From: Eledone cirrhosa
Lineage: Eukaryota
Length of the DNA: 64,000 nt
NCBI GenBank assembly: GCA_964016885.1
Contig: OZ024743.1
Location: 132,556,001 to 132,620,000, forward strand
Reading direction: 5' to 3'
Made by a program: the position numbers and the translations under genes. This document shows positions 1 to 15,891 of the stretch, piece after piece. Below the pieces are notes generated by a model. It searched no databases, was not told where the DNA came from, and was given only the letters and a program-made list of their open reading frames with translations. Every line of letters begins with the position of its first letter. The first letter of the stretch is position 1.

Positions 1-3000
1 TGGTGTTTGGTGTTTGCTGTTTGGTGTTTGGTCTTTGGTGCTTGGTGTTTGGTGCTTGGTGCTTGGTGTTTGGTGTTTGGTGCTTGGTGTTTGGTGTTTG
101 GTGCTTGGTGCTTGGTGCTTGGTGTTTGGTGCTTGGTGTCTGGTGCTTGGTGTCTGGTGCTTGGTGTTTGGTGCTTGGTGTTTGGTGCTTGGTGTTTGGT
201 GTTTGGTGCTTGTTGCTTGGTGCTTGGAGCTTGGTGTTTGGTGCTTGGTGCTTGGTGTTTGGTGCTGGGTGCTTGGTGTTTGGTGCTTGGTGCTTGGTGT
301 TTGGTGTTTGGTGCTTGGTGCTTGGTGTTTGGTGTTTGGTGTTATATGCTTGGTGTTTGGTGCTTGGTGCTTGGTGTTTGGTGTTTGGTTCTTGATGCTT
401 GGTATTTGGTGCTTGGTGCTTGCTGCTTGGTGTTTGGTGCTTGGTGATTGATGCTTGGTGTTTGGTGCTTGGTGCTTGGTGTTTGGTGTTTGGTGCTTGT
501 TGCTTGGTGCTTGGTGCTTGGTGTTTGGTGCTTGGTGCTTGGTGTTTGGTGCTGGGTGCTTGGTGTTTGGTGCTTGGTGCTTGGTGTTTGGTGTTTGGTG
601 CTTGGTGCTTGGTGTTTGGTGTTTGGTGTTATATGCTTGGTGTTTGGTGCTTGGTGCTTGGTGTTTGGTGTTTGGTTCTTGATGCTTGGTATTTGGTGCT
701 TGGTGCTTGCTGCTTGGTGTTTGGTGCTTGGTGATTGATGCTTGGTGTTTGGTGCTTGGTGCTTGGTGTTTGGTTTTTGGTGCTAGGTGCTTGGTGCTTG
801 GTGTTTGGTGCTTGGTGTTTGGTGTTTGGTGCTTGGTGCTTGGTGTTTGGTACTTGGTGCTTGGTGCTTGGTGTTTGGTGCTTGGTGCTTGGTGTTTGGT
901 GTTTGGTGTTTGGTGCTTGGTGCTTGGTGTTTGGTGCTTGGTGCTTGGTGCTTGGTGTTTCGTGCTAGGTGCATGGTGCTTGGTGTTTGGTGCTTGGTGC
1001 TTGGTGCTTGGTCTTTGGTGTTTGGTGTTTAGTGCTTGGTGCTTGGTGCTTGGTGCTTGGTGCTTGGTGCTTGGTCCTTGGTGTTTGGTGCTTGGTGCTT
1101 GGTGTTTGGTGTTTGGTGCTTGGTGCTTGGTGCTTCGTGTTTGGTGTTTGGTGCTTGGTGTCTGGAGCTTGGTGTTTGGTGTTTGGTGCTTGGTGTTTGG
1201 TGTTTGGTGCTTGGTGCTTGGTGTTTGGTGCTTGGTGCTTGGTGTTTGTACTTGGTGCTTGGTGCTTGGTGTTTGGTGCTTGGTTCTTGGTGTTTGGTGC
1301 TTGGTGTTTGGAGCTTGGTGCTTGGTGTTTGGTGCTTGGTGCTTGGTGTTTGTACTTGGTGCTTGGTGCTTGGTGTTTGGTGCTTGGTTCTTGGTGTTTG
1401 GTGCTTGGTGTTTGGAGCTTGGTGCTTGGTGTTTGGTGCTTGGTGCTTGGTGTTTGGTGTTTGGTGCTTGGTGCTTGGTGTTTGGTGTTTGGTGCTTGGT
1501 GTTTGGTGTTTGGTGTTTGGTGCTTGGTGCTTGGTGTTTGTTGCTTGGTACTTGGTGCATGGTGTTTGGTGCTGGGTGCTTGGTGTTTTGTGCTTGGTTC
1601 TTGGTGTTTGGTGTTTGGTGCTTGGTACTTGGTGTCTGGAGCTTGGTGTTTGGTGTTTGGTGCTTGGTGTTTGGTGCTTGGTGCTTGGTGTTTGGTGTTT
1701 CGTGTTTGATGCTTGGTGTTTTATGCTTGGTGCTTGGTGTTTGGTGCTTGGTGTTTGTATTTGGTGCTTGGTGCTTGGTGTTTTGTGCTTGGTTCTTGGT
1801 GTTTGGTGTTTGGTGCTTGGTACTTGGTGCTTGGTGTTAGGTGTTTGGTGCTTGGTGCTTGGTGTTTGGTGTTTGGTCCTTGGTGCTTGGTGCTTGGTCT
1901 TTAGTTCTTGGTGCTTGGTGTTTGTTGTTTGGTGCTTTCTGTTTGCTGCTTGGTGTTTGCTGCTTGGTGCTTGGTGCTTGGTGTTTGGTGTTTGGTGCTA
2001 GGTGCTTGGTGTTTGGTGTTTGGTGTTTGATGCTTGGTGTTTGGTGCTTGGTGTTTGGTGCTTGGTGCTTGGGGCTTGGTGTTTGGTGCTTGGTGCTTGG
2101 TGCTTGGTGTTTCGTGCTTGGTGCTTGGTGTTTGGTGTTTGGTGTTTGGTGCTTGGTGCTTTGTGTTTGGTGCTTGGTGCTTGGTGCTGGGTGGTTGGTA
2201 TTTGGTGCTTGGTGCTTGGTGTTTGGTGCTTGGTGCTTGGTGCTTGGTGTTTGGTGCTTGGTGCTTGGTGCTTGGTCTTTGGTGCTTGGTGTTTGGTGTT
2301 TGGTGCTTCATGCTTTGTGTTTGGTGCTTGGTGATTAGTGTTTGGTGCTTGGTACTTGGTGTTTGGTGCTTGGTGTTTGGTGTTTGCTGTTTGGTGTTTG
2401 GTGTTTGGTGTTTGCTGTTTGGTGTCTGCTTTTTGGTGTTTGGTGTTTGTTGTATGGTGTTTGCTGTTTCGTGTTTGGTGTTTGCTGTTTGGTGTTTGGT
2501 GTTTGCTGTTTGGTGTTTGGTCTTTGGTGCTTGGTCCTTGGTGTTTGGTGCTTGGTGCTTGGTGTTTGGTGTTTGGTGCTTGGTGCTTGTTGCTTCGTGT
2601 TTGCTGTTTGGTGCTTGGTGTCTGGAGCTTGGTGTTTGGTGTTTGGTGCTTGGTGTTTGGTGTTTGGTGCTTGGTGCTTGGTGTTTGGTGCTTGGTGCTT
2701 GGTGTTTGTACTTGGTGCTTGGTGCTTGGTGTTTGGTGATTGGTTCTTGGTGTTTGGTGCTTGGTGTTTGGAGCTTGGTGCTTGGTGTTTGGTGCTTGGT
2801 GCTTGGTGTTTGGTGTTTGGTGTTTGGTGCTTGGTGTTTGGTGTTTGGTACTTGGTGCATGGTGTTTGGTGCTGGGTGCTTGGTGTTTGGTCCTTGGTGT
2901 TTGGTGCTTGGTGCTTGGTGTTTGGTGTTTGTTGTTTGATGCTTGGTGTTTTATGCTTGGTGCTTGGTGTTTGGTGCTTGGTGTTTGTACTTGGGTCTTG

Positions 3001-6000
3001 GTGCTTGGTGTTTTGTGCTTGGTTCTTGGTGTTTGGTGTTTGGTGCTTGGTACTTGGTGCGTGGTGTTAGGTGTTTGGTGCTTGGTGCTTGGTGTTTGGT
3101 GTTTGGTCCTTGGTGCTTGGTGCTTGGTGTTTAGTGCTTGGTGCTTGGTGTTTGTTGTTTGGTGCTTTCTGTTTGCTGCTTGGTGTTTGCTGCTTGGTGC
3201 TTGGTGCTTGGTGTTTGGTGTTTGGTGCTAGGTGCTTGGTGTTTGGTGTTTGGTGTTATATGCTTGGTGTTTGATGCTTGGTGCTTGGTGCTTGGTGTTT
3301 GGTGTTTGGTGCTTGGTGTTTTATGCTTGGTGTTTGATGTTTGGTGCTTGGTGCTTGGTGTTTGGTGCTTGGTGCTTGGTGTTTGTACTTGGTGCTTGGT
3401 GCTTGGTTCTTGGTGTTTGGTGCTAGGTGCTTGGTGCTTGGTGCTTGGTGTTTGGTGCTTGGTGTTTGGTGCTTCGTGTTTGGTGCTTGGTGCCTGGTGC
3501 TTGGTGCTTGGTGCTTGGTGTTTGGTGCTTGGTGTTTGCTGCTTGGTATTAGGTGTTTGGTGCTTGGTGCTTGGTGTTTGGTGTTTGGTGCTTGGTGTTT
3601 GGTGCTTGGTGTTTGGTGTTTGGTGCTTGGTGTTTGGTGCTTGGTACTTGGTGCTTGGTGCTTGGTGTTAGGTGTTTGGTGCTTGGTGCTTGGTGTTTGG
3701 TTTTTGGTGCTTGGTGCTTGGTGTTTGGTGTTTGGTGCTTGCTGCTGGCTGCTTGGTGTTTGGTGCTTGGTGATTGGTGCTTGGTGTTTGGTGCTTGGTG
3801 TTTGGTGTTTGGTACTAGGTGCTTGGTGCTTGGTGTTTGGTGCTTGGTGCTTGGTGTTTGGTGCTTGGTGCTTAGTGTTTGGTGCTAGGTGCTTGGGGTT
3901 TGGTGTTTGGTGCTTGGTGCTTGGTGTTTGGTGCTTGGTGCTTGGTGTTTGGTGTTTGGTGCTTGGTGCTTGGTGTTTGGTGTTTGCTGTTTGGTGTTTG
4001 GTGTTTGGTGTTTGCTGTTTGGTGTCTGCTTTTTGGTGTTTGGTGTTTGCGGTATGGTGTTTGCTGTTTCGTGTTTGGTGTTTGCTGTTTGGTGTTTGGT
4101 GTTTGCTGTTTGGTGTTTGGTCTTTGGTGCTTGGTGTTTGGTGCTTGGTGCTTGGTGTTTGGTGTTTGGTGCTTGGTGTTTGGTGTTTGGTGCTTGGTGC
4201 TTGGTGCTTGGTGTTTGGTGCTTGGTGTCTGGTGCTTGGTGTCTGGTGCTTGGTGTTTGGTGCTTGGTGTTTGGTGCTTGGTGTTTGGTGTTTGGTGCTT
4301 GTTGCTTGGTGCTTGGAGCTTGGTGTTTGGTGCTTGGTGCTTGGTGTTTGGTGCTGGGTGCTTGGTGTTTGGTGCTTGGTGCTTGGTGTTTGGTGTTTGG
4401 TGCTTGGTGCTTGGTGTTTGGTGTTTGGTGTTATATGCTTGGTGTTTGGTGCTTGGTGCTTGGTGTTTGGTGTTTGGTTCTTGATGCTTGGTATTTGGTG
4501 CTTGGTGCTTGCTGCTTGGTGTTTGGTGCTTGGTGATTGATGCTTGGTGTTTGGTGCTTGGTGCTTGGTGTTTGGTGTTTGGTGCTTGTTGCTTGGTGCT
4601 TGGTGCTTGGTGTTTGGTGCTTGGTGCTTGGTGTTTGGTGCTGGGTGCTTGGTGTTTGGTGCTTGGTGCTTGGTGTTTGGTGTTTGGTGCTTGGTGCTTG
4701 GTGTTTGGTGTTTGGTGTTATATGCTTGGTGTTTGGTGCTTGGTGCTTGGTGTTTGGTGTTTGGTTCTTGATGCTTGGTATTTGGTGCTTGGTGCTTGCT
4801 GCTTGGTGTTTGGTGCTTGGTGATTGATGCTTGGTGTTTGGTGCTTGGTGCTTGGTGTTTGGTTTTTGGTGCTAGGTGCTTGGTGCTTGGTGTTTGGTGC
4901 TTGGTGTTTGGTGTTTGGTGCTTGGTGCTTGGTGTTTGGTACTTGGTGCTTGGTGCTTGGTGTTTGGTGCTTGGTGCTTGGTGTTTGGTGTTTGGTGTTT
5001 GGTGCTTGGTGCTTGGTGTTTGGTGCTTGGTGCTTGGTGCTTGGTGTTTCGTGCTAGGTGCATGGTGCTTGGTGTTTGGTGCTTGGTGCTTGGTGCTTGG
5101 TCTTTGGTGTTTGGTGTTTAGTGCTTGGTGCTTGGTGCTTGGTGCTTGGTGCTTGGTGCTTGGTCCTTGGTGTTTGGTGCTTGGTGCTTGGTGTTTGGTG
5201 TTTGGTGCTTGGTGCTTGGTGCTTCGTGTTTGGTGTTTGGTGCTTGGTGTCTGGAGCTTGGTGTTTGGTGTTTGGTGCTTGGTGTTTGGTGTTTGGTGCT
5301 TGGTGCTTGGTGTTTGGTGCTTGGTGCTTGGTGTTTGTACTTGGTGCTTGGTGCTTGGTGTTTGGTGCTTGGTTCTTGGTGTTTGGTGCTTGGTGTTTGG
5401 AGCTTGGTGCTTGGTGTTTGGTGCTTGGTGCTTGGTGTTTGTACTTGGTGCTTGGTGCTTGGTGTTTGGTGCTTGGTTCTTGGTGTTTGGTGCTTGGTGT
5501 TTGGAGCTTGGTGCTTGGTGTTTGGTGCTTGGTGCTTGGTGTTTGGTGTTTGGTGCTTGGTGCTTGGTGTTTGGTGTTTGGTGCTTGGTGTTTGGTGTTT
5601 GGTGTTTGGTGCTTGGTGCTTGGTGTTTGTTGCTTGGTACTTGGTGCATGGTGTTTGGTGCTGGGTGCTTGGTGTTTTGTGCTTGGTTCTTGGTGTTTGG
5701 TGTTTGGTGCTTGGTACTTGGTGTCTGGAGCTTGGTGTTTGGTGTTTGGTGCTTGGTGTTTGGTGCTTGGTGCTTGGTGTTTGGTGTTTCGTGTTTGATG
5801 CTTGGTGTTTTATGCTTGGTGCTTGGTGTTTGGTGCTTGGTGTTTGTATTTGGTGCTTGGTGCTTGGTGTTTTGTGCTTGGTTCTTGGTGTTTGGTGTTT
5901 GGTGCTTGGTACTTGGTGCTTGGTGTTAGGTGTTTGGTGCTTGGTGCTTGGTGTTTGGTGTTTGGTCCTTGGTGCTTGGTGCTTGGTCTTTAGTTCTTGG

Positions 6001-6625
6001 TGCTTGGTGTTTGTTGTTTGGTGCTTTCTGTTTGCTGCTTGGTGTTTGCTGCTTGGTGCTTGGTGCTTGGTGTTTGGTGTTTGGTGCTAGGTGCTTGGTG
6101 TTTGGTGTTTGGTGTTTGATGCTTGGTGTTTGGTGCTTGGTGTTTGGTGCTTGGTGCTTGGGGCTTGGTGTTTGGTGCTTGGTGCTTGGTGCTTGGTGTT
6201 TCGTGCTTGGTGCTTGGTGTTTGGTGTTTGGTGTTTGGTGCTTGGTGCTTTGTGTTTGGTGCTTGGTGCTTGGTGCTGGGTGGTTGGTATTTGGTGCTTG
6301 GTGCTTGGTGTTTGGTGCTTGGTGCTTGGTGCTTGGTGTTTGGTGCTTGGTGCTTGGTGCTTGGTCTTTGGTGCTTGGTGTTTGGTGTTTGGTGCTTGAT
6401 GCTTTGTGTTTGGTGCTTGGTGATTAGTGTTTGGTGCTTGGTACTTGGTGTTTGGTGCTTGGTGTTTGGTGTTTGCTGTTTGGTGTTTGGTGTTTGGTGT
6501 TTGCTGTTTGGTGTCTGCTTTTTGGTGTTTGGTGTTTGTTGTATGGTGTTTGCTGTTTCGTGTTTGGTGTTTGCTGTTTGGTGTTTGGTGTTTGCTGTTT
6601 GGTGTTTGGTCTTTGGTGCTTGGTG
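1..6625 (+). repeat. Higher-order duplication with a 4,089-bp period (1 to about 2535 repeated at 4090 to about 6625)
   Basis: ORF-track pairs share the offset 4089 (399/4488, 686/4775, 1036/5125, 2034/6123). One difference seen (cttcatg versus cttgatg near 2309/6398). Confidence 0.9.
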
Positions 6626-9600
6626 TTTGGTGCTTGGTGCTTGGTGTTTGGTGTTTGGTGCTTGGTGCTTGGTGCTTGGTGTTTGGTGCTTGGTGCTTGG
6701 TGTTTGGTGCTTGGTGTTTGGTGCTTGGTGCTTGGTGTTTGGTGCTTGGTGCTGGGTGGTTGGTGTTTGGTGCTTGGTGCTTGGTGTTTCGTGCTAGGTG
6801 CATGGTGCTTGGTGTTTGGTGCTTGGTGCTTGGTGCTTGGTGCTTGGTGCTTGGTCCTTGGTGTTTGGTGCTTGGTGCTTGGTCTTTGGTGTTTGGTGCT
6901 TGGTGCTTGGTGCTTCGTGTTTGGTGTTTGGTGCTTGGTGTCTGGAGCTTGGTGTTTGGTGTTTGGTTCTTGGTGTTTGGTGTTTCGTGCTTGGTGCTTG
7001 GTGTTTGGTGCTTGGTGCTTGGTGTTTGGTGCTTGGTGTTTGGGGCTTGGTTCTTGGTGTTTGGTGCTTGGTGTTTGGAGCTTGGTGCTTGGTGTTTGGT
7101 GCTTGGTGCTTGGTGTTTGTACTTGGTGCTTGGTGCTTGGTGTTTGGTGCTTGGTTCTTGGTGTTTGGTGCTTGGTGTTTGGAGCTTGGTGCTTGGTGTT
7201 TGGTGCTTGGTGCTTGGTGTTTGGTGTTTGGTGCTCGGTGCTTGGTGTTTGGTGTTTGGTGCTTGGTGTTTGGTGTTTGGTGCTTGGTGCTTGGTGTTTG
7301 TTGCTTGGTACTTGGTGCATGGTGTTTGGTGCTGGGTGCTTGGTGTTTTGTGCTTGGTTCTTGGTGTTTGGTGTTTGGTGCTTGGTACTTGGTGTCTGGA
7401 GCTTGGTGTTTGGTGTTTGGTGCTTGGTGTTTGGTGCTTGGTGCTTGGTGTTTGGTGTTTGGTGTTTGATGCTTGGTGTTTTATGCTTGGTGCTTGGTGT
7501 TTGGTGCTTGGTGTTTGTATTTGGTGCTTGGTGCTTGGTGTTTTGTGCTTGGGTCTTGGTGTTTGGTGTTTGGTGCTTGGTACTTGGTGCTTGGTGTTAG
7601 GTGTTTGGTGCTTGGTGCTTGGTGTTTGGTGTTTGGTCCTTGGTGCTTGGTGCTTGGTGTTTAGTGCTTGGTGCTTGGTGTTTGTTGTTTGGTGCTTTCT
7701 GTTTGCTGCTTGGTCTTTGCTGCTTGGTGCTTGGTGCCTGGTGTTTGGTGTTTGGTGCTAGGTGCTTGGTGTTTGGTGTTTGGTGTTTGATGCTTGGTGT
7801 TTGGTGCTTGGTGTTTGGTGCTTGGTGCTTGGGGCTTGGTGTTTGGTGCTTGGTGCTTGGTGCTTGGTGTTTGGTGCTTGGTGCTTGGTGTTTGGTGTTT
7901 GGTGTTTGGTGCTTGGTGCTTGGTGTTTGGTGCTTGGTGCTTGGTGCTGGGTGGTTGGTATTTGGTGCTTGGTGCTTGGTGTTTGGTGCTTGGTGCTTGG
8001 TGCTTGGTGTTTGGTGCTTGGTGCTTGGTGCTTGGTCTTTGGTGCTTGGTGTTTGGTGTTTGGTGTTTGGTGCTTTGTGTTTGGTGCTTGGTGATTAGTG
8101 TTTGGTGCTTGGTACTTGGTGTTTGGTGCTTGGTGTTTGGTGTTTGCTGTTTGGTGTTTGGTGTTTGCTGTTTGCTGTTTGGTGTCTGCTTTTTGGTGTT
8201 TGGTGTTTGCTGTATGGTGTTTGCTGTTTCGTGTTTGGTGTTTGCTGTTTGCTGTTTGGTGTTTGCTGTTTGGTGTTTGGTCTTTGGTGCTTGGTGTTTG
8301 GTGCTTGGTGCTTGGTGTTTGGTGTTTGGTGCTTGGTGCTTGGTGCTTGGTGTTTGGTGCTTGGTGTCTGGTGCTTGGTGTCTGGTGCTTGGTGTTTGGT
8401 GTTTGGTGTTTGGTGCTTGGTGTTTGGTGTTTGGTGTTTGGTGTTTGGTGCTTGTTGCTTGGTGCTTGGTGCTTGGTGTTTGGTGCTTGGTGCTTGGTGT
8501 TTGGTGCTGGGGGCTTGGTGTTTGGTGCTTGGTGCTTGGTGCTTGGTGTTTGGTGTTTGGTGCTTGGTGCTTGGTGTTTGGTGTTTGGTGTTATATGCTT
8601 GGTGTTTGATGCTTGGTGCTTGGTGCTTGGTGTTTGGTGTTTGGTGCTTGGTGTTTTATGCTTGGTGTTTGATGTTTGGTGCTTGGTGCTTGGTTTTTGG
8701 TGCTTGGTGCTTGGTGTTTCTACTTGGTGCTTGGTGCTTGGTTCTTGGTGTTTGGTGCTTGGTGCTTGGTGCTTGGTGCTTGGTGTTTGGTGCTTGGTGT
8801 TTGGTGCTTGGTGTTTGGTGCTTGGTGCCTGGTGCTTGGTGCTTGGTGCTTGGTGTTTGGTGCTTGGTGTTTGGTGCTTGGTATTAGGTGTTTGGTGCTT
8901 GGTGCTTGGTGTTTGGTGTTTGGTGCTTGGTGTTTGGTGCTTGGTGTTTGGTGTTTGGTGCTTGGTATTTGGTGCTTGGTACTTGGTGCTTGGTGCTTGG
9001 TGCTAGGTGTTTGGTGCTTGGTGCTTGGTGTTTGGTTTTTGGTGCTTGGTGCTTGGTGTTTGGTGTTTGGTGCTTGCTGCTGGCTGCTTGGTGTTTGGTG
9101 CTTGGTGATTGGTGCTTGGTGTTTGGTGCTTGGTGTTTGGTGTTTGGTACTAGGTGCTTGGTGCTTGGTGTTTGGTGCTTGGTGCTTGGTGTTTGGTGTT
9201 TGGTGATTGGTGCTTGGTGTTTGGTGCTTGGTGCTGGGTTCTGGGTGGTTGGTGTTTGGTGCTTGGTGTTTGGTGCTGGGTGCTTGGTGTTTGGTGCTTG
9301 GTGCTTGGTCTTTGGTGTTTGGTGTTTGGTGTTTGGGGCTTGGTGCTTGGTGCTTGGTGTTTGGTGCTTGGTGCTTGGTGTTTGGTGCTTGGTGCTTAGT
9401 GTTTGGTGCTAGGTGCTTGGGGTTTGGTGTTTGGTGCTTGGTGCTTGGTGTTTGGTGCTTGGTGCTTGGTGTTTGGTGTTTGGTGCTTGGTGCTTGGTGC
9501 TTGGTGTTTGGTGTTTCCTGTTTGCTGTTTGGTGTTTGGTGTTTGGTGTTTGCTGTTTGGTGTCTGCTTTTTGGTGTTTGGTGTTTGCTGTATGTTATTT

Positions 9601-12600
9601 GCTGTTTGGTGTTTGGTGTTTGGTGTTTGGTGCTTGGTGCTTGGTGTTTGGTGCTTGGTGCTTGGTGTTTGGTGCCTGGTGCTTGGGGCTTGGTGTTTGG
9701 TGTTTGGTGCTTGGTGCTTGGAGTTTGGTGTTTGGTGCTTGGTGCTTGGTGTTTTGTGTTTGGTGTTTGGTTTTTGGTGCTTGGTGCTTGGTGCTTGGTG
9801 CTTGGTCCTTGGTGTTTGGTGCTTGGTGCTTGGTGTTTGTACTTGGTGCTTGGTGCTTGGTGTTTGGTTCTTGGTTCTTGGTGTTTGGTACTTGGTGCTT
9901 GGTGCTTGGTGTTTGGTGCTTGGTGCTTGGTGTTTGGTGTTTGGTGTTTGGTGCTTGGTGCTTGGTGTTTGGTGCTTGGTGCTTGGTGCTGGGTGGTTGG
10001 TATTTGGTGCTTGGTGCTTGGTGTTTGGTGCTTGGTGCTTGGTGCTTGGTGTTTCGTGCTTGGTGCTTGGTGCTTGGTCTTTGGTGCTTGGTGTTTGGTG
10101 TTTGGTGCTTGGTGCTTTGTGTTTAGTGCTTGGTGATTAGTGTTTGGTGCTTGGTACTTGGTGTTTGGTGCTTGGTGTTTGGTGTTTGCTGTTTGGTGTT
10201 TGGTGTTTGGTATTTGCTGTTTGGTGTCTGCTTTTTGGTGTTTGGTGTTTGCTGTATGGTGTTTGCTGTTTCGTGTTTGGTGTTTGCTGTTTGGTGTTTG
10301 GTGTTTGCTGTTTGGTGTTTGGTCTTTGGTGCTTGGTGTTTGGTGCTTGGTGCTTGGTGTTTGGTGTTTGGTGCTTGGTGTTTGGTGTTTGGTGCTTGGT
10401 GCTTGGTGCTTGGTGTTTGGTGCTTGGTGTCTGGTGCTTGGTGTCTGGTGCTTGGTGTTTGGTGTTTGGTGTTTGGTGCTTGGTGTTTGGTGTTTGGTGT
10501 TTGGTGTTTGGTGCTTGTTGCTTGGTGCTTGGTGCTTGGTGTTTGGTGCTTGGTGCTTGGTGTTTGGTGCTGTGTGCTTGGTGTTTGGTGCTTGGTGCTT
10601 GGTGTTTGGTGTTTGGTGCTTGGTGCTTGGTGTTTGGTGTTTGGTGTTATATGCTTGGTGTTTGGTGCTTGGTGCTTGGTGTTTGGTGTTTGGTTCTTGA
10701 TGCTTGGTATTTGGTGCTTGGTGCTTGCTGCTTGGTGTTTGGTGCTTGGTGCTTGGTGTTTGGTACTTGGTGCTTGGTGCTTGGTGTTTGGTGCTTGGTG
10801 CTTGGTGTTTGGTGTTTGGTTCTTGATGCTTGGTATTTGGTGCTTGGTGCTTGCTGCTTGGTGTTTGGTGCTTGGTGCTTGGTGTTTGGTACTTGGTGCT
10901 TGGTGCTTGGTGTTTGGTGCTTGGTGCTTGGTGTTTGGTGTTTGGTGTTTGGTGCTTGGTGCTTGGTGTTTGGTGCTTGGTGCTGGGTGGTTGGTGTTTG
11001 GTGTTTGGTGCTTGGTGTTTTGTACTAGGTGCATGGTGCCTGGTGTTTGGTGCTTGGTGCTTGGTGCTTGGTCTTTGGTGTTTGGTGTTTAGTGCTTGGT
11101 GCTTGGTGCTTGGTGCTTGGTGCTTGGTGCTTGGTCCTTGGTGTTTGGTGCTTGGTGCTTGGTGTTTGGTGTTTGGTGCTTGGTGCTTGGTGCTTCGTGT
11201 TTGGTGTTTGGTGCTTGGTGTCTGGAGCTTGGTGTTTGGTGTTTGGTGCTTGGTGCTTGGTGTTTGGTGCTTGGTGCTTGGTGCTTGGTGTTTGGTGCTT
11301 GGTTCTTGGTGCTTGGTCTTTGGTGCTTGGTGTTTGGTGTTTGGTGCCTGGTGCTTTGTGTTTGGTGCTTGGTGATTAGTGTTTGGTGCTTGGTACTTGG
11401 TGTTTGGTGCTTGGTGTTTGGTGTTTGCTGTTTGGTGTTTGGTGTTTGCTGTTTGCTGTTTGGTGTCTGCTTTTTGGTGTTTGGTGTTTGCTGTATGGTG
11501 TTTGCTGTTTCGTGTTTGGTGTTTGCTGTTTGGTGTTTGGTGTTTGCTGTTTGGTGTTTGGTCTTTGGTGCTTGGTGTTTGGTGCTTGGTGCTTGGTGTT
11601 TGTACTTGGTGCTTGGTGCTTGGTGTTTGGTTCTTGGTTCTTGGTGTTTGGTACTTGGTGCTTGGTGCTTGGTGTTTGGTGCTTGGTGCTTGGTGTTTGG
11701 TGTTTGGTGTTTGGTGCTTGGTGCTTGGTGTTTGGTGCTTGGTGCTTGGTGCTGGGTGGTTGGTATTTGGTGCTTGGTGCTTGGTGTTTGGTGCTTGGTG
11801 CTTGGTGCTTGGTGTTTGGTGCTTGGTGCTTGGTGCTTGGTCTTTGGTGCTTGGTGTTTGGTGTTTGGTGCTTGGTGCTTTGTGTTTGCTGCTTGGTGAT
11901 TAGTGTTTGGTGCTTGGTACTTGGTGTTTGGTGCTTGGTGTTTAGTGTTTGCTGTTTGGTGTTTGGTCTTTGGTGCTTGGTGTTTGGTGCTTGGTGCTTG
12001 GTGTTTGTACTTGGTGCTTGGTGCTTGGTGTTTGGTTCTTGGTTCTTGGTGTTTGGTACTTGGTGCTTGGTGCTTGGTGTTTGGTGCTTGGTGCTTGGTG
12101 TTTGGTGTTTGGTGTTTGGTGCTTGGTGCTTGGTGTTTGGTGCTTGGTGCTTGGTGCTGGGTGGTTGGTATTTGGTGCTTGGTGCTTGGTGTTTGGTGCT
12201 TGGTGCTTGGTGCTTGGTGTTTGGTGCTTGGTGCTTGGTGCTTGGTCTTTGGTGCTTGGTGTTTGGTGTTTGGTGCTTGGTGCTTTGTGTTTGCTGCTTG
12301 GTGATTAGTGTTTGGTGCTTGGTACTTGGTGTTTGGTGCTTGGTGTTTAGTGTTTGCTGTTTGGTGTTTGGTGTTTGGTGTTTGCTGTTTGGTGTCTGCT
12401 TTTTGGTGTTTGGTGTTTGCTGTATGGTGTTTGCTGTTTGGTGTTTGGTGTTTGCTGTTTGGTGTTTGGTGTTTGCCGTTTGGTGTATGGTCTTTGGTGC
12501 TTGGTGTTTGGTGCTTGGTGCTTGGTGTTTGGTGTTTGGTGCTTGGTGTTTGGTGCTTGGTGTTTGGTGCTTGGTGCTTGGTGCTTGGTGTTTGGTGCTT

Positions 12601-13742
12601 GGTGCTTGGTGCTTGGTGTTTGGTGCTTGGTGTCTGGTGCTTGGTGTCTGGTGCTTGGTGTTTGGTGTTTGGTGTTTGGTGCTTGGTGTTTGGTGTTTGG
12701 TGTTTGGTGTTTGGTGCTTGTTGCTTGGTGCTTGGTGCTTGGTGTTTGGTGCTTGGTGCTTGGTGTTTGGTGCTGGGTGCTTGGTGTTTGGTGCTTGGTG
12801 CTTGGTGTTTGGTGTTTGGTGCTTGGTGCTTGGTGTTTGGTGTTTGGTGTTATATGCTTGGTGTTTGGTGCTTGGTGCTTGGTGTTTGCTGTTTGGTTCT
12901 TGATGCTTGGTATCTGGTGCTTGGTGCTTGCTGCTTGGTGTTTGGTGCTTGGTGATTGATGCTTGGTGTTTGGTGCTTGGTGCTTGGTGTTTGGTTTTTG
13001 GTGCTTGGTGCTTGGTGTTTGGTGCTTGGTGCTTGGTGCTGGGTCGTTGGTATTTGGTGCTTGGTGCTTGGTGTTTGGTGCTTGGTGCTTGGTGCTTGGT
13101 GTTTGGTGCTTGGTGCTTGGTGCTTGGTCTTTGGTGCTTGGTGTTTGGTGTTTGGTGCTTGGTGCTTTGTGTTTGGTGCTTGGTGATTAGTGTTTGGTGC
13201 TTGGTACTTGGTGTTTGGTGCTTGGTGTTTGGTGTTTGTTGTTTGGTGTTTGGTGTTTGGTGTTTGCTGTTTGGTGTCTGCTTTTTGGTGTTTGGTGTTT
13301 GCTGTATGGTGTTTGCTGTTTCGTGTTTGGTGTTTGCTGTTTGGTGTTTGGTGTTTGCTGTTTGGTGTTTGGTCTTTGGTGCTTGGTGTTTGGTGCTTGG
13401 TGCTTGGTGTTTGGTGTTTGGTGCTTGGTGCTTGGTGCTTCGTGTTTGGTGTTTGGTGCTTGGTGTCTGGAGCTTGGTGTTTGGTGTTTGGTGCTTGGTG
13501 TTTGGTGTTTCGTGCTTGGTGCTTGGTGTTTGGTGCTTGGTGCTTGGTGTTTGGTGCTTGGTGTTTGGTGCTTGGTTCTTGGTGTTTGGTGCTTGGTGTT
13601 TGGAGCTTGGTGCTTGGTGTTTGGTGCTTGGTGCTTGGTGTTTGTACTTGGTGCTTGGTGCTTGGTGTTTGGTGCTTGGTTCTTGGTGTTTGGTGCTTGG
13701 TGTTTGGAGCTTGGTGCTTGGTGTTTGGTGCTTGGTGCTTGG

Positions 13743-13746
13743 TGTT
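13743..13746 (+). other. Target-site duplication TGTT, left copy
   Basis: Junctions read cttggTGTT|tatagcgg and ccgctaca|TGTTtggtg. Removing the element plus one TGTT restores the 7-bp phase and reproduces the paralogous empty site at about 7180-7310. Confidence 0.92.
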
Positions 13747-14112
13747 TATAGCGGGAATACTGGTTGCATGAATGTAACAAAACGAGACAATGTTTGTGTA
13801 TATAATATTTAATTAACGGTAGATAGAATACTTGACATGTCAAAGATAGATGTTAGAATGAAACAAAGTTAGTAGTTACCGTTTTGATTGCCAGGCAAAC
13901 GCGGCTGGCAGAGGGCGCCTGGCCTTAGCCAGGCGCCTGTTGGCCAAATTAATGGCAGAGCCAAATGAGAAGACTCTTGACCTGGTGCCGAAAAGGCAAA
14001 GAGAGAGAGGAAGCTCAAAGCCGCCAGTTTTATAGGGCTCTGACCGGAAGTCGCAGAAAGGGCTCCACCTCCCGTCCAGATCCCAACCAAAACAAGGGAG
14101 ACAACCGCTACA
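13747..14112 (-). repeat. 3' LTR (366 bp)
   Basis: Direct repeat of 15526-15891, preceded on the minus strand by the PPT. Confidence 0.97.
13808..13813 (-). terminator. Putative polyadenylation signal ATTAAA in the 3' LTR (second copy at 15587-15592)
   Basis: ATTAAA followed by CA dinucleotides and a GT/T-rich tract (TTGTCTCGTTTTGTT), about 60 bp before the LTR end. Confidence 0.55.
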
Positions 14113-14126
14113 TAACCTCCCGCCAG
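14113..14126 (-). promoter_or_regulatory. Polypurine tract
   Basis: Minus strand CTGGCGGGAGGTTA directly abuts the TGTAG start of the 3' LTR. Confidence 0.8.
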
Positions 14127-14289
14127 AATTTTAGTGTATAAAAATCGAAATGAAAATATGTAGCAAGTTGGCGAGAATGTTGTAACAGGCATGAAAATTA
14201 CGACAAAAGAATGTTTGGAAAAATCAATGCTAGATATCAAGGTAGTAAAGTAAGGGAAGGGCTCAAAGTTCAAATGTACAAAATATAGT

Positions 14290-15039
14290 TCACTGGTGTG
14301 CAATCACATGACCGCAGGAAAGAAAGTGTGTTCCAGAGAATGAATGCAGGTGGTCTCTGTTCTGTGGTATATCGTGAATTTCCAACCTCCGAATGGATTT
14401 TCTCACAGGAAGAGTGCTGCAAAAATAAATTCTCTGGCTTTGGTTGCTGTTGCTGTTGCTGCTGCTGCTGTATTGCTGTTGCTGCTGCTGTATTGCTGTT
14501 GCTGCTGCTGCTGTAATGCTGTTGTTGCTGTATTGCTGTTGCTGCTGCTGTATTGCTGTTGTTGCTGTATTGCTGTTTCTGCTGCTGCTGTATTGCTGTT
14601 GCTGCTGTATTCGGTGTTTAAATTCACAGTAAAAAAAAATTTTTTTTTTTTTTTTAGAAAAAAATGAGTTGCGCAAAGTGCTAGAAATAGCAGCCGAAGT
14701 TGATGGTCGATGTTGAGAATGCGTTGATCTGGAAGGGTCCAGAGGCCAGCGACCAGAGAAATACGCATTCTTAATAAATGCGCGGTTATCAACGGTTAAT
14801 TTACATTGTAAATTTATAAACCGGCAAATAGAAGAATATAGCTTAAGGCTGAAGAATCCTTGGGGGAGAAATGCTATCTCTGGCGTGCGGCCGTCTGTGA
14901 GGAGAGACATCTCAGTGAATCGAGAATTTATGCTGCCTACACGTGCCAATACAAGGTTGAAAAAAAATAATATTTCTAACGCGCGAGAAAATGATAGTGC
15001 AATTTTGAAAGTGACAATGATGAAAAAGAAAGGCTTCAA
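14290..15039 (-). CDS. Possible 249-aa ORF in the element's sense orientation (Q/S/A-rich segment, no recognisable domain); may be non-coding
   Basis: Longest non-satellite ORF in the track and on the strand the element would transcribe. It crosses homopolymers and a stop-free repeat, and I recognise no homology. Confidence 0.2.
   Translation of the reverse strand: MKPFFFIIVTFKIALSFSRALEILFFFNLVLARVGSINSRFTEMSLLTDGRTPEIAFLPQGFFSLKLYSSICRFINLQCKLTVDNRAFIKNAYFSGRWPLDPSRSTHSQHRPSTSAAISSTLRNSFFSKKKKKIFFYCEFKHRIQQQQQYSSSRNSNTATTAIQQQQQQYSNNSITAAAATAIQQQQQQYSSSSNSNSNQSQRIYFCSTLPVRKSIRRLEIHDIPQNRDHLHSFSGTHFLSCGHVIAHQ
14444..14611 (+). repeat. Compound (TGC/TGT) repeat with an approximately 20-bp unit GCTGCTGCTGTATTGCTGTT, inside the retroelement
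   Basis: Exact units at 14461-14480 and 14481-14500, followed by length-variant copies. Confidence 0.93.
14631..14655. repeat. Adjacent A9 and T16 homopolymers
   Basis: Directly visible in the sequence. Confidence 0.9.
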
Positions 15040-15187
15040 TCAGCATAATTATTGGTGTGAACTTAGGAAAAAAACAAAAAACTTGAACGATGAAGAAAAC
15101 GAAGAACAAAAGGCAATGGTTCATCGAAAATAAATGTTCCTGTTGAAATGTTTTTTAAAGAATATCAAATTTCTTTTTTTTTTTTTG

Positions 15188-15309
15188 TGTTTTGAAAGAG
15201 TTCGTTGTAAGAAACGAGAAACATATATATATATCGTGAAATGTTTTTTTTGTTTTGAAAGTGTTCGTTGTAAGAAACGAGAAACATATATATATATATT
15301 GGTGAAATG
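15188..15309 (+). repeat. Two-copy tandem repeat with a 63-bp period in the element leader region
   Basis: TGTTTTGAAAGWGTTCGTTGTAAGAAACGAGAAACA(TA)n..GTGAAATG starts at 15188 and again at 15251. Confidence 0.92.
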
Positions 15310-15506
15310 CGACAGTTAATTGATGCGTGAGAGAAAAAGTATGTCTGTGCGAATTCCACATGTGCGTGTGTGCGTGTCCTTGAGTATTTTCATAGTTTGT
15401 CGCTAAATTTGCTGTGTATTCGTAATGTTACTCACAAAACCAGATGTGCTATTTTTTTCTTTTTTTGGGGGTGACCACTTATAGCGATGAGCGGCTGCGT
15501 GTTCGT

Positions 15507-15524
15507 ATCACGTCGGGGTCACCA
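15507..15524 (-). promoter_or_regulatory. Primer-binding site for tRNA-Trp(CCA); complementarity extends to 15493
   Basis: Minus strand TGGTGACCCCGACGTGAT is the complement of the 3' 18 nt of animal tRNA-Trp including CCA, the same PBS as avian sarcoma/leukosis viruses. It lies 1 nt from the LTR end. Confidence 0.95.
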
Positions 15525-15525
15525 A

Positions 15526-15891
15526 TATAGCGGGAATACTGGTTGCATGAATGTAACAAAACGAGACAATGTTTGTGTATATAATATTTAATTAACGGTA
15601 GATAGAATACTTGACATGTCAAAGATAGATGTTAGAATGAAACAAAGTTAGTAGTTACCGTTTTGATTGCCAGGCAAACGCGGCTGGCAGAGGGCGCCTG
15701 GCCTTAGCCAGGCGCCTGTTGGCCAAATTAATGGCAGAGCCAAATGAGAAGACTCTTGACCTGGTGCCGAAAAGGCAAAGAGAGAGAGGAAGCTCAAAGC
15801 CGCCAGTTTTATAGGGCTCTGACCGGAAGTCGCAGAAAGGGCTCCACCTCCCGTCCAGATCCCAACCAAAACAAGGGAGACAACCGCTACA
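15526..15891 (-). repeat. 5' LTR (366 bp)
   Basis: Minus strand reads TGTAGCGG...CCGCTATA (7/8 terminal inverted repeat). Followed after a 1-nt spacer by the PBS. Matches 13747-14112 at offset 1779 with no difference found by eye. Confidence 0.97.
15807..15813 (-). promoter_or_regulatory. Putative TATA box in the 5' LTR U3 (second copy at 14028-14034)
   Basis: CCC-TATAAAA-CTGG about 80 bp into the LTR, with a pyrimidine-rich CTCTCTCTCTTTG tract roughly 20-35 nt downstream. Confidence 0.6.

Follow-up and report, generated by a model that had tools for sequence, protein, structure and literature searches.

A non-coding LTR retrotransposon copy in the genome of Eledone cirrhosa carries, next to its 5' LTR, a contiguous antisense copy of 32 nt of tRNA-Trp that includes the CCA end and has a single mismatch, at position 58. 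The modified base m1A58 of a primer tRNA normally stops plus-strand strong-stop synthesis after 18 nt. The long site most probably records a failure of this stop: read-through of the mature primer, misincorporation at m1A58, a switch to the U5 end, and inheritance through RNA thereafter. The mismatched base is fixed in the family of the element, an LTR end plus primer-binding site (PBS) is duplicated downstream, and similar tRNA copies recur elsewhere in the genome, with errors and end points enriched at particular tRNA positions.

The element lies in a 64,000-nt stretch of contig OZ024743.1, hereafter the window, in which positions 1-13746 and 15892-64000 form a continuous 7-bp satellite (TTGGTGY-type) with a strong strand skew. 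It is the sole interruption of this array in the window. The copy occupies 2145 nt of the minus strand (13747..15891) and is flanked by a 4-bp target-site duplication, AACA; 4-bp duplications and LTR ends of the TGT...ATA/AAA type are also found in the 30 copies of the family that were displayed. Its 366-nt LTRs (5' LTR, 15526..15891; 3' LTR, 13747..14112) show 0 differences and have the ends TGT...ATA, and a polypurine-tract-like stretch (14113..14124) precedes the 3' LTR. One base separates the end of the 5' LTR (15526) from the start of the core PBS (15524), an 18-nt segment (15507..15524) complementary to tRNA-Trp 76-59 including CCA and perfect in this copy. The core is followed on the same strand by an A in place of T opposite tRNA A58 (15506), likely a misincorporation, by a 13-nt over-extension (15493..15505) complementary to positions 57-45 of the G57, C47 isodecoder, by a spacer (15478..15492) whose end repeats the last LTR bases (CGCTATA) and is likely a duplicated U5 end, and by a decayed second PBS (15468..15477). 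A CTG/TTG-rich microsatellite-like array is located further inside the element (14433-14629). No gag/pol remnant was detected in the element by tblastn (best E 2.0), no tRNA gene within the 64-kb window by ARAGORN, and no tRNA match in an Rfam scan of the element, which returned three sub-threshold chance hits only. A tRNA gene or tRNA-derived SINE was rejected as the identity of the segment, which holds only positions 45-76, antisense and adjoining an LTR.

The sequence and coordinates of 15493-15524 given in the earlier note were confirmed, with the element placed on the minus strand, and its proposal of a match to tRNA-Trp 45-76 with a lone mismatch at 58 was compared with the tRNA genes of the host. 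In the 3.0-Gb host genome (G000), tRNA-Trp(CCA) genes were recognized by ARAGORN in 10 of the 18 loci scanned; they do not encode the CCA, read G45-G46-C47-T48...G57/A57-A58, and occur as G57/A57 and C47/T47 isodecoders. Over 15524-15493 of the window, CCA included, 31 of 32 positions are complementary to the G57/C47 isodecoder (e.g. L039, L040, L042, L047), which is mismatched only at 58 and fits 15493-15505 throughout. An array gene with T58 (L124) was rejected as the template, because its base 57 is A, against G57 in the window. About 40 tRNA-Trp genes, mostly with A57 and several of them degenerate, form a tandem array at G000:C4:353.39-353.49 Mb. A chance match is excluded, since the reversed control pattern had no match anywhere in the 3.0 Gb, whichever search was run, and the extension was absent from all nine viral contigs sharing the 18-nt site.

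A family-specific pattern identified 581 sites in the host genome, with A opposite position 58 in 573 of them, G in 8, and T or C in none. The share of G (1.4%) is near the variation at adjacent bases, which points to a single inherited event in the family. The family is young, since LTR substitutions number 0-6 in most of its 30 closest copies. The earlier note had suggested tabulating position 58 as a means of telling one fixed event from recurrent read-through; within the family the tabulation favours the former, and genome-wide it favours the latter. Four loci (L105, L110, L207, L336) contain tandem duplications of a 46-nt unit made of PBS, extension and U5 end, and in L110 and L336 the two duplicated cores differ. 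Locus L180 (G000:C1:71.73 Mb) reads LTR, PBS, extension, polypurine tract and LTR, is nearly devoid of internal sequence, and stands in tandem with a longer copy.

Downstream of tRNA position 45, the last LTR bases are repeated and followed by the second PBS, and an older copy (L111) has a 22-nt direct repeat of the LTR end plus the PBS start. The same layout of LTR-end repeat and second PBS was found in a coding element (L219), in a relative (L297) whose tRNA copy differs, and in contigs of other samples such as L236, L238 and L240. Two- and three-fold arrays of a similar PBS-extension-U5-end unit were also observed in the metagenome loci L240, L255, L269 and L276. The second PBS carries a G-to-C change in 86 of the 97 sites tabulated, as it does in the window copy, and an intact G in 8; by this change 7 nt become identical to the tRNA 3' end and therefore complementary to the first PBS. 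In insertion L218 (1355-1400), the 3' end passes the LTR and runs through PBS, extension and an internal U5-like repeat; use of the internal repeat as a DNA end could explain tRNA copies inside LTRs.

Long tRNA copies are not confined to this family. Among the matches listed, 42 other junction lineages of the host genome carry 24-52 nt of tRNA-Trp, and some of them belong to gag-pol elements. This set comprises all 71 sites with T opposite 58 and the non-T sites located among 100 of 143 listed, so that short non-T sites are probably undercounted, and four rows (three copies of the window family and one fold-back twin) were left out of the counts. Amplified long copies are present in at least three families, of about 580, 38 and 4 copies. 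Lengths of 40, 38 and 32 nt occur among the gag-pol long sites, the last in 38 copies in which the base opposite 58 is the correct T, and two copies of the second 32-nt family (L017, L371) have one extra G directly after the 18th base. Such sites in gag-pol elements with a correct T count against the earlier idea that a long site aids non-autonomous elements, of which it is no speciality. Among 89 consecutive exact-PBS sites (of 410), 30 reach at least 24 nt, in 7 of 25 LTR families; long sites are thus common in the clade but not its norm, which answers a question that the earlier note had left to be checked. A scan of contigs from other samples gave 64 loci with 70 sites. After removal by eye of four loci resembling bacterial tRNA genes (L235, L244, L251, L272) and one near-whole tRNA (L261), the base opposite 58 was T in 34, C in 27, G in 2 and A in 2, and the matches extend up to 50 nt; these counts show spread and not frequency, since the pattern selects for the extension and many rows represent few families.

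The errors and end points of these copies likely record sites of tRNA modification. Position 58 is wholly mismatched in 10 of the 42 listed lineages (A 4, G 4, C 1, mixed 1), in 8 of them by transversions only, as compared with 21 of 284 lineage-positions at the control positions 45-52 (Fisher p=0.0025); positions 53-57 could not serve as a control because they are fixed by the search patterns. Among 43 listed lineages, 16 end at 35-39 (p=0.0014 against a uniform distribution) and 6 at 25-29, with none at 30-34 and none beyond 25. G37 is mismatched in 2 of the 9 listed lineages that reach past it (L102, L229) and also in the metagenome locus L237, and both isodecoder bases at 57 and both at 47 are represented among the events. 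The host tRNA-Trp presumably carries m1G37 and m2,2G26, as in other animals, and the two end-point clusters fit blocks at these modifications. The accessible text of one source describes m1A, m1G and m2,2G as bases that block or miscode reverse transcriptase (PMC8062790), and that of another describes minor products of HIV-1 reverse transcriptase stopping at 55, 54 and 37 (PMC13191261). The copied CCA, the excess of mismatches at 58 and the end points near G37 and G26 together support the read-through reading that the earlier note had put forward. Several results weigh on the other side. About three quarters of the lineages have the correct T opposite 58, as an unmodified primer or a correct read-through would leave; the LTRs of at least 6 of the 10 mismatched events share the same few end bases and probably belong to one family, so that these events are separate junctions but do not represent separate enzymes; and chance matches and microhomology shift the end points.

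According to the read-through reading, reverse transcriptase would, likely once, have continued plus-strand strong-stop synthesis beyond m1A58 of the mature primer and have inserted a wrong base opposite it. The over-long plus strand, being unable to pair normally, may then have re-primed through a template switch on the U5 end, a switch that would duplicate the LTR end and the PBS. The extension would thereafter be inherited through RNA and the minus strand, and in most rounds only the first 18 nt would be copied anew from the primer. Single-copy junctions in which a tRNA copy is followed by the element's own LTR end (L142, 16 nt; L034, 12 nt) and a fold-back at the anticodon stem (L127) were found among the other events. 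Repeats of the U5 end of at least 8 nt occur in only 4 of the 42 listed lineages, against a background of 3.2%, which indicates that the routes of rescue vary. Chimeras that break at exactly 18 nt (L026, L392 and six inverted joins) indicate that the usual stop is still at 58. Hints that over-extended plus strands can be transferred come from L145, L339/L345 and L297, which depart from related copies in the isodecoder or in the base at 58, as copying anew from the primer would produce.

Two other origins of the segment were weighed against these data. It could have come from a free co-packaged tRNA, or from tRNA-derived DNA, through recombination at the PBS, and not from the attached primer; template-switch insertions of tRNA into retroviral DNA are described in the accessible text of PMC12220202. 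We consider this very unlikely, as all the cases, found by searches that looked only at the PBS, stand in register with it. Growth of the site by point mutation, under selection for long pairing and free only at the base that cannot pair, draws on the extended primer-template contacts known for Drosophila gypsy, Ty1 and ASLV. A stepwise process cannot produce the dozens of events, each in a single copy, in which 36-52 nt are followed by rearranged sequence, nor the G37 errors and the fold-backs, and in most lineages the base opposite 58 is the T that pairs, so that this origin is extremely improbable.

The extension may nevertheless have gained a use after read-through. Among 100 of 481 sites listed, the core PBS has mismatches at both nt 5 and nt 10 in 77, at nt 10 only in 10, at nt 5 only in 1, and at neither in 12 (classes tallied by hand, with a pattern that omits an older subfamily of different spacing). 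A host isodecoder was rejected as the source of the two-mismatch core, as neither a U72 gene nor a double-variant gene was present among the tRNA-Trp genes compared; one A67 gene (L122) is able to explain a one-mismatch class. On a tree of 84 copies made without the PBS, the core classes are scattered (33 changes versus a shuffled mean of 35.9) and the extension stays put; the tree is fast and weakly resolved, with 19 of 81 branches starred, and the starred branches force 10-14 changes per core class. The core thus appears to be often rewritten from the primer and the extension to be inherited, although recombination could scatter the labels as well. In the exaptation reading, pairing over 57-45 would allow full-length tRNA to prime a weakened core that 3' tRNA fragments bind poorly. 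It would account for the prevalence of the two-mismatch core, which no host gene explains, even though primer copying appears to revert it repeatedly. The predicted duplex over 73-45 has -50.9 kcal/mol and that of the variant core by itself -22.7 kcal/mol, so pairing of the extension would outweigh the weakening of the core. The end at position 45 recurs in a second family, of 38 copies, and mouse ETn/MusD elements show the same two-mismatch pattern, read in the accessible part of PMC7472051 as escape from tRNA fragments. Selection for long pairing, suggested in the earlier note, nevertheless fared poorly: 2 of 13 positions of the extension are polymorphic in 30 copies as compared with 5 of 125 just downstream, which gives the extension no conservation beyond that of its flank and no sign of purifying selection. 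In addition, one copy (L396) in which a partner-family leader has replaced the extension was integrated with identical LTRs, a reversion of about 23% per round lets the variant persist through a few master copies without selection, and a core change also weakens the predicted hairpin with the second site (-14.8 with one core change versus -18.5 kcal/mol), which is another possible reason for that change. Exaptation after read-through is therefore rather unlikely, and the extension was most likely tolerated rather than selected.

The probable helper of the window family is a family with a CHCC Gag and an 18-nt PBS (L401-L403, L408-L412, L415), which has recombined repeatedly with it: 8 of the 20 partner-family loci examined are chimeras of the two, the leader in L396 being one product. 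In 6 of 20 partner-family LTR loci (L399, L404-L406, L416, L417), the sequence past the 18-nt PBS is joined to an inverted leader of the window family; these joins, in at least four separate places, land at the spot of the second site (window 15468-15477). The coding element L219 was rejected as the helper, as it has no similarity to the window element beyond the PBS and the CHCC-Gag family makes a stronger candidate. At position 19 this likely helper has an A as well, and the A of the window family could therefore predate the extension.

By its cis features, the window element is placed with CsRn1-like Gypsy elements, as a putative non-autonomous derivative. It shares with this clade, as described in the accessible text of PMC2582038, the tRNA-Trp PBS, the 4-bp duplication and the TGT...ATA ends. 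The Gag motif CX2HX9CX3C, likewise common to the clade, is present in the recombining partner family (8 of 20 loci) and in all five coding elements checked, the window element being non-coding, and related coding elements have the Pfam domain order PR-RT-RNase H-IN. The same text gives PwRn1 and AgCR a PBS of about 12 nt and, so far as it extends, mentions no extension, in contrast to the window element. Our literature search, with thin coverage of subscription journals and the PwRn1 supplementary PBS alignment outside it, retrieved no report of a contiguous PBS of 30 or more nt in Gypsy elements or of a long heritable over-extension.

A primer over-extension sequence was reportedly treated by Muthuswami in 2002. 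The lentiviral form of this sequence, of about 5 nt, is the closest known counterpart; in the accessible descriptions of lentiviruses and spumaviruses (PMC13191261, PMC8599865), it is complementary to the primer directly 3' of the 18-nt PBS and across 58, so that over-extended plus strands can transfer. By analogy, the extension described here would let later read-through strands transfer correctly. The lentiviral match reaches about 55-54 in these descriptions, whereas that of the window element ends at 45 and the ends of the others range between 53 and 25; the mismatch fixed at 58, many separate origins and the location in Gypsy retrotransposons are further differences, and over-extension is not group-wide, with ends that are not near 55-54. 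HIV-1 products reaching 37 are treated as non-transferable dead ends in the available part of PMC13191261; here such products appear to have been integrated and sometimes amplified. The ETn/MusD elements are, according to the accessible text of PMC7472051, also non-autonomous, with two mismatches in their commonest PBS and perfect copies scattered by primer copying; it describes no extension past 18 nt there. The same text states that Ty1 and Ty3 inherit the PBS strictly, whereas the window family, a Gypsy, seems to undergo reversion as retroviruses do. Complementarity to the T arm or anticodon stem is similarly added by the split or second primer sites of Ty1, Ty3 and Drosophila gypsy (PMC1635307, PMC3681743, as far as accessible), but these boxes are short and separate, some with tested annealing, and the window site is one contiguous copy with copying errors. 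Mature tRNA with CCA was also copied into retroelement DNA in the cases of Colicelli and Goff 1986 and Konstantinova 2006, which the accessible text of PMC12220202 presents as rare laboratory clones with non-primer tRNAs, not as heritable families.

A bolder proposal, which we regard as doubtful, is that CsRn1-like elements make heritable sequence out of failed strong-stop events as a matter of routine, so that animal genomes hold a readable fossil record of m1A58, m1G37 and m2,2G26, and that the window family uses its long site for priming by full-length tRNA while its core drifts away from silencing by tRNA fragments, the second site acting as a mimic of the tRNA end that captures strong-stop DNA of the helper. 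The underlying chemistry is already known, and the function of the long site remains putative. The site is explained mainly as a replication fossil, recurrent in the group and not special to the window element. Plus strands copied far past m1A58 are considered non-integrable in reviews; here they appear to have been integrated many times and to have become fixed in at least three families. These copies provide in vivo, germ-line evidence on where the reverse transcriptase of a retrotransposon stops or errs on its modified primer. They also make it possible to infer tRNA modifications from nothing but genome assemblies, and they point to a route through which PBS regions can acquire over-extension sequences and duplicated primer sites. 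In the window family, the frequency with which the primer overwrites a Gypsy PBS can be measured.
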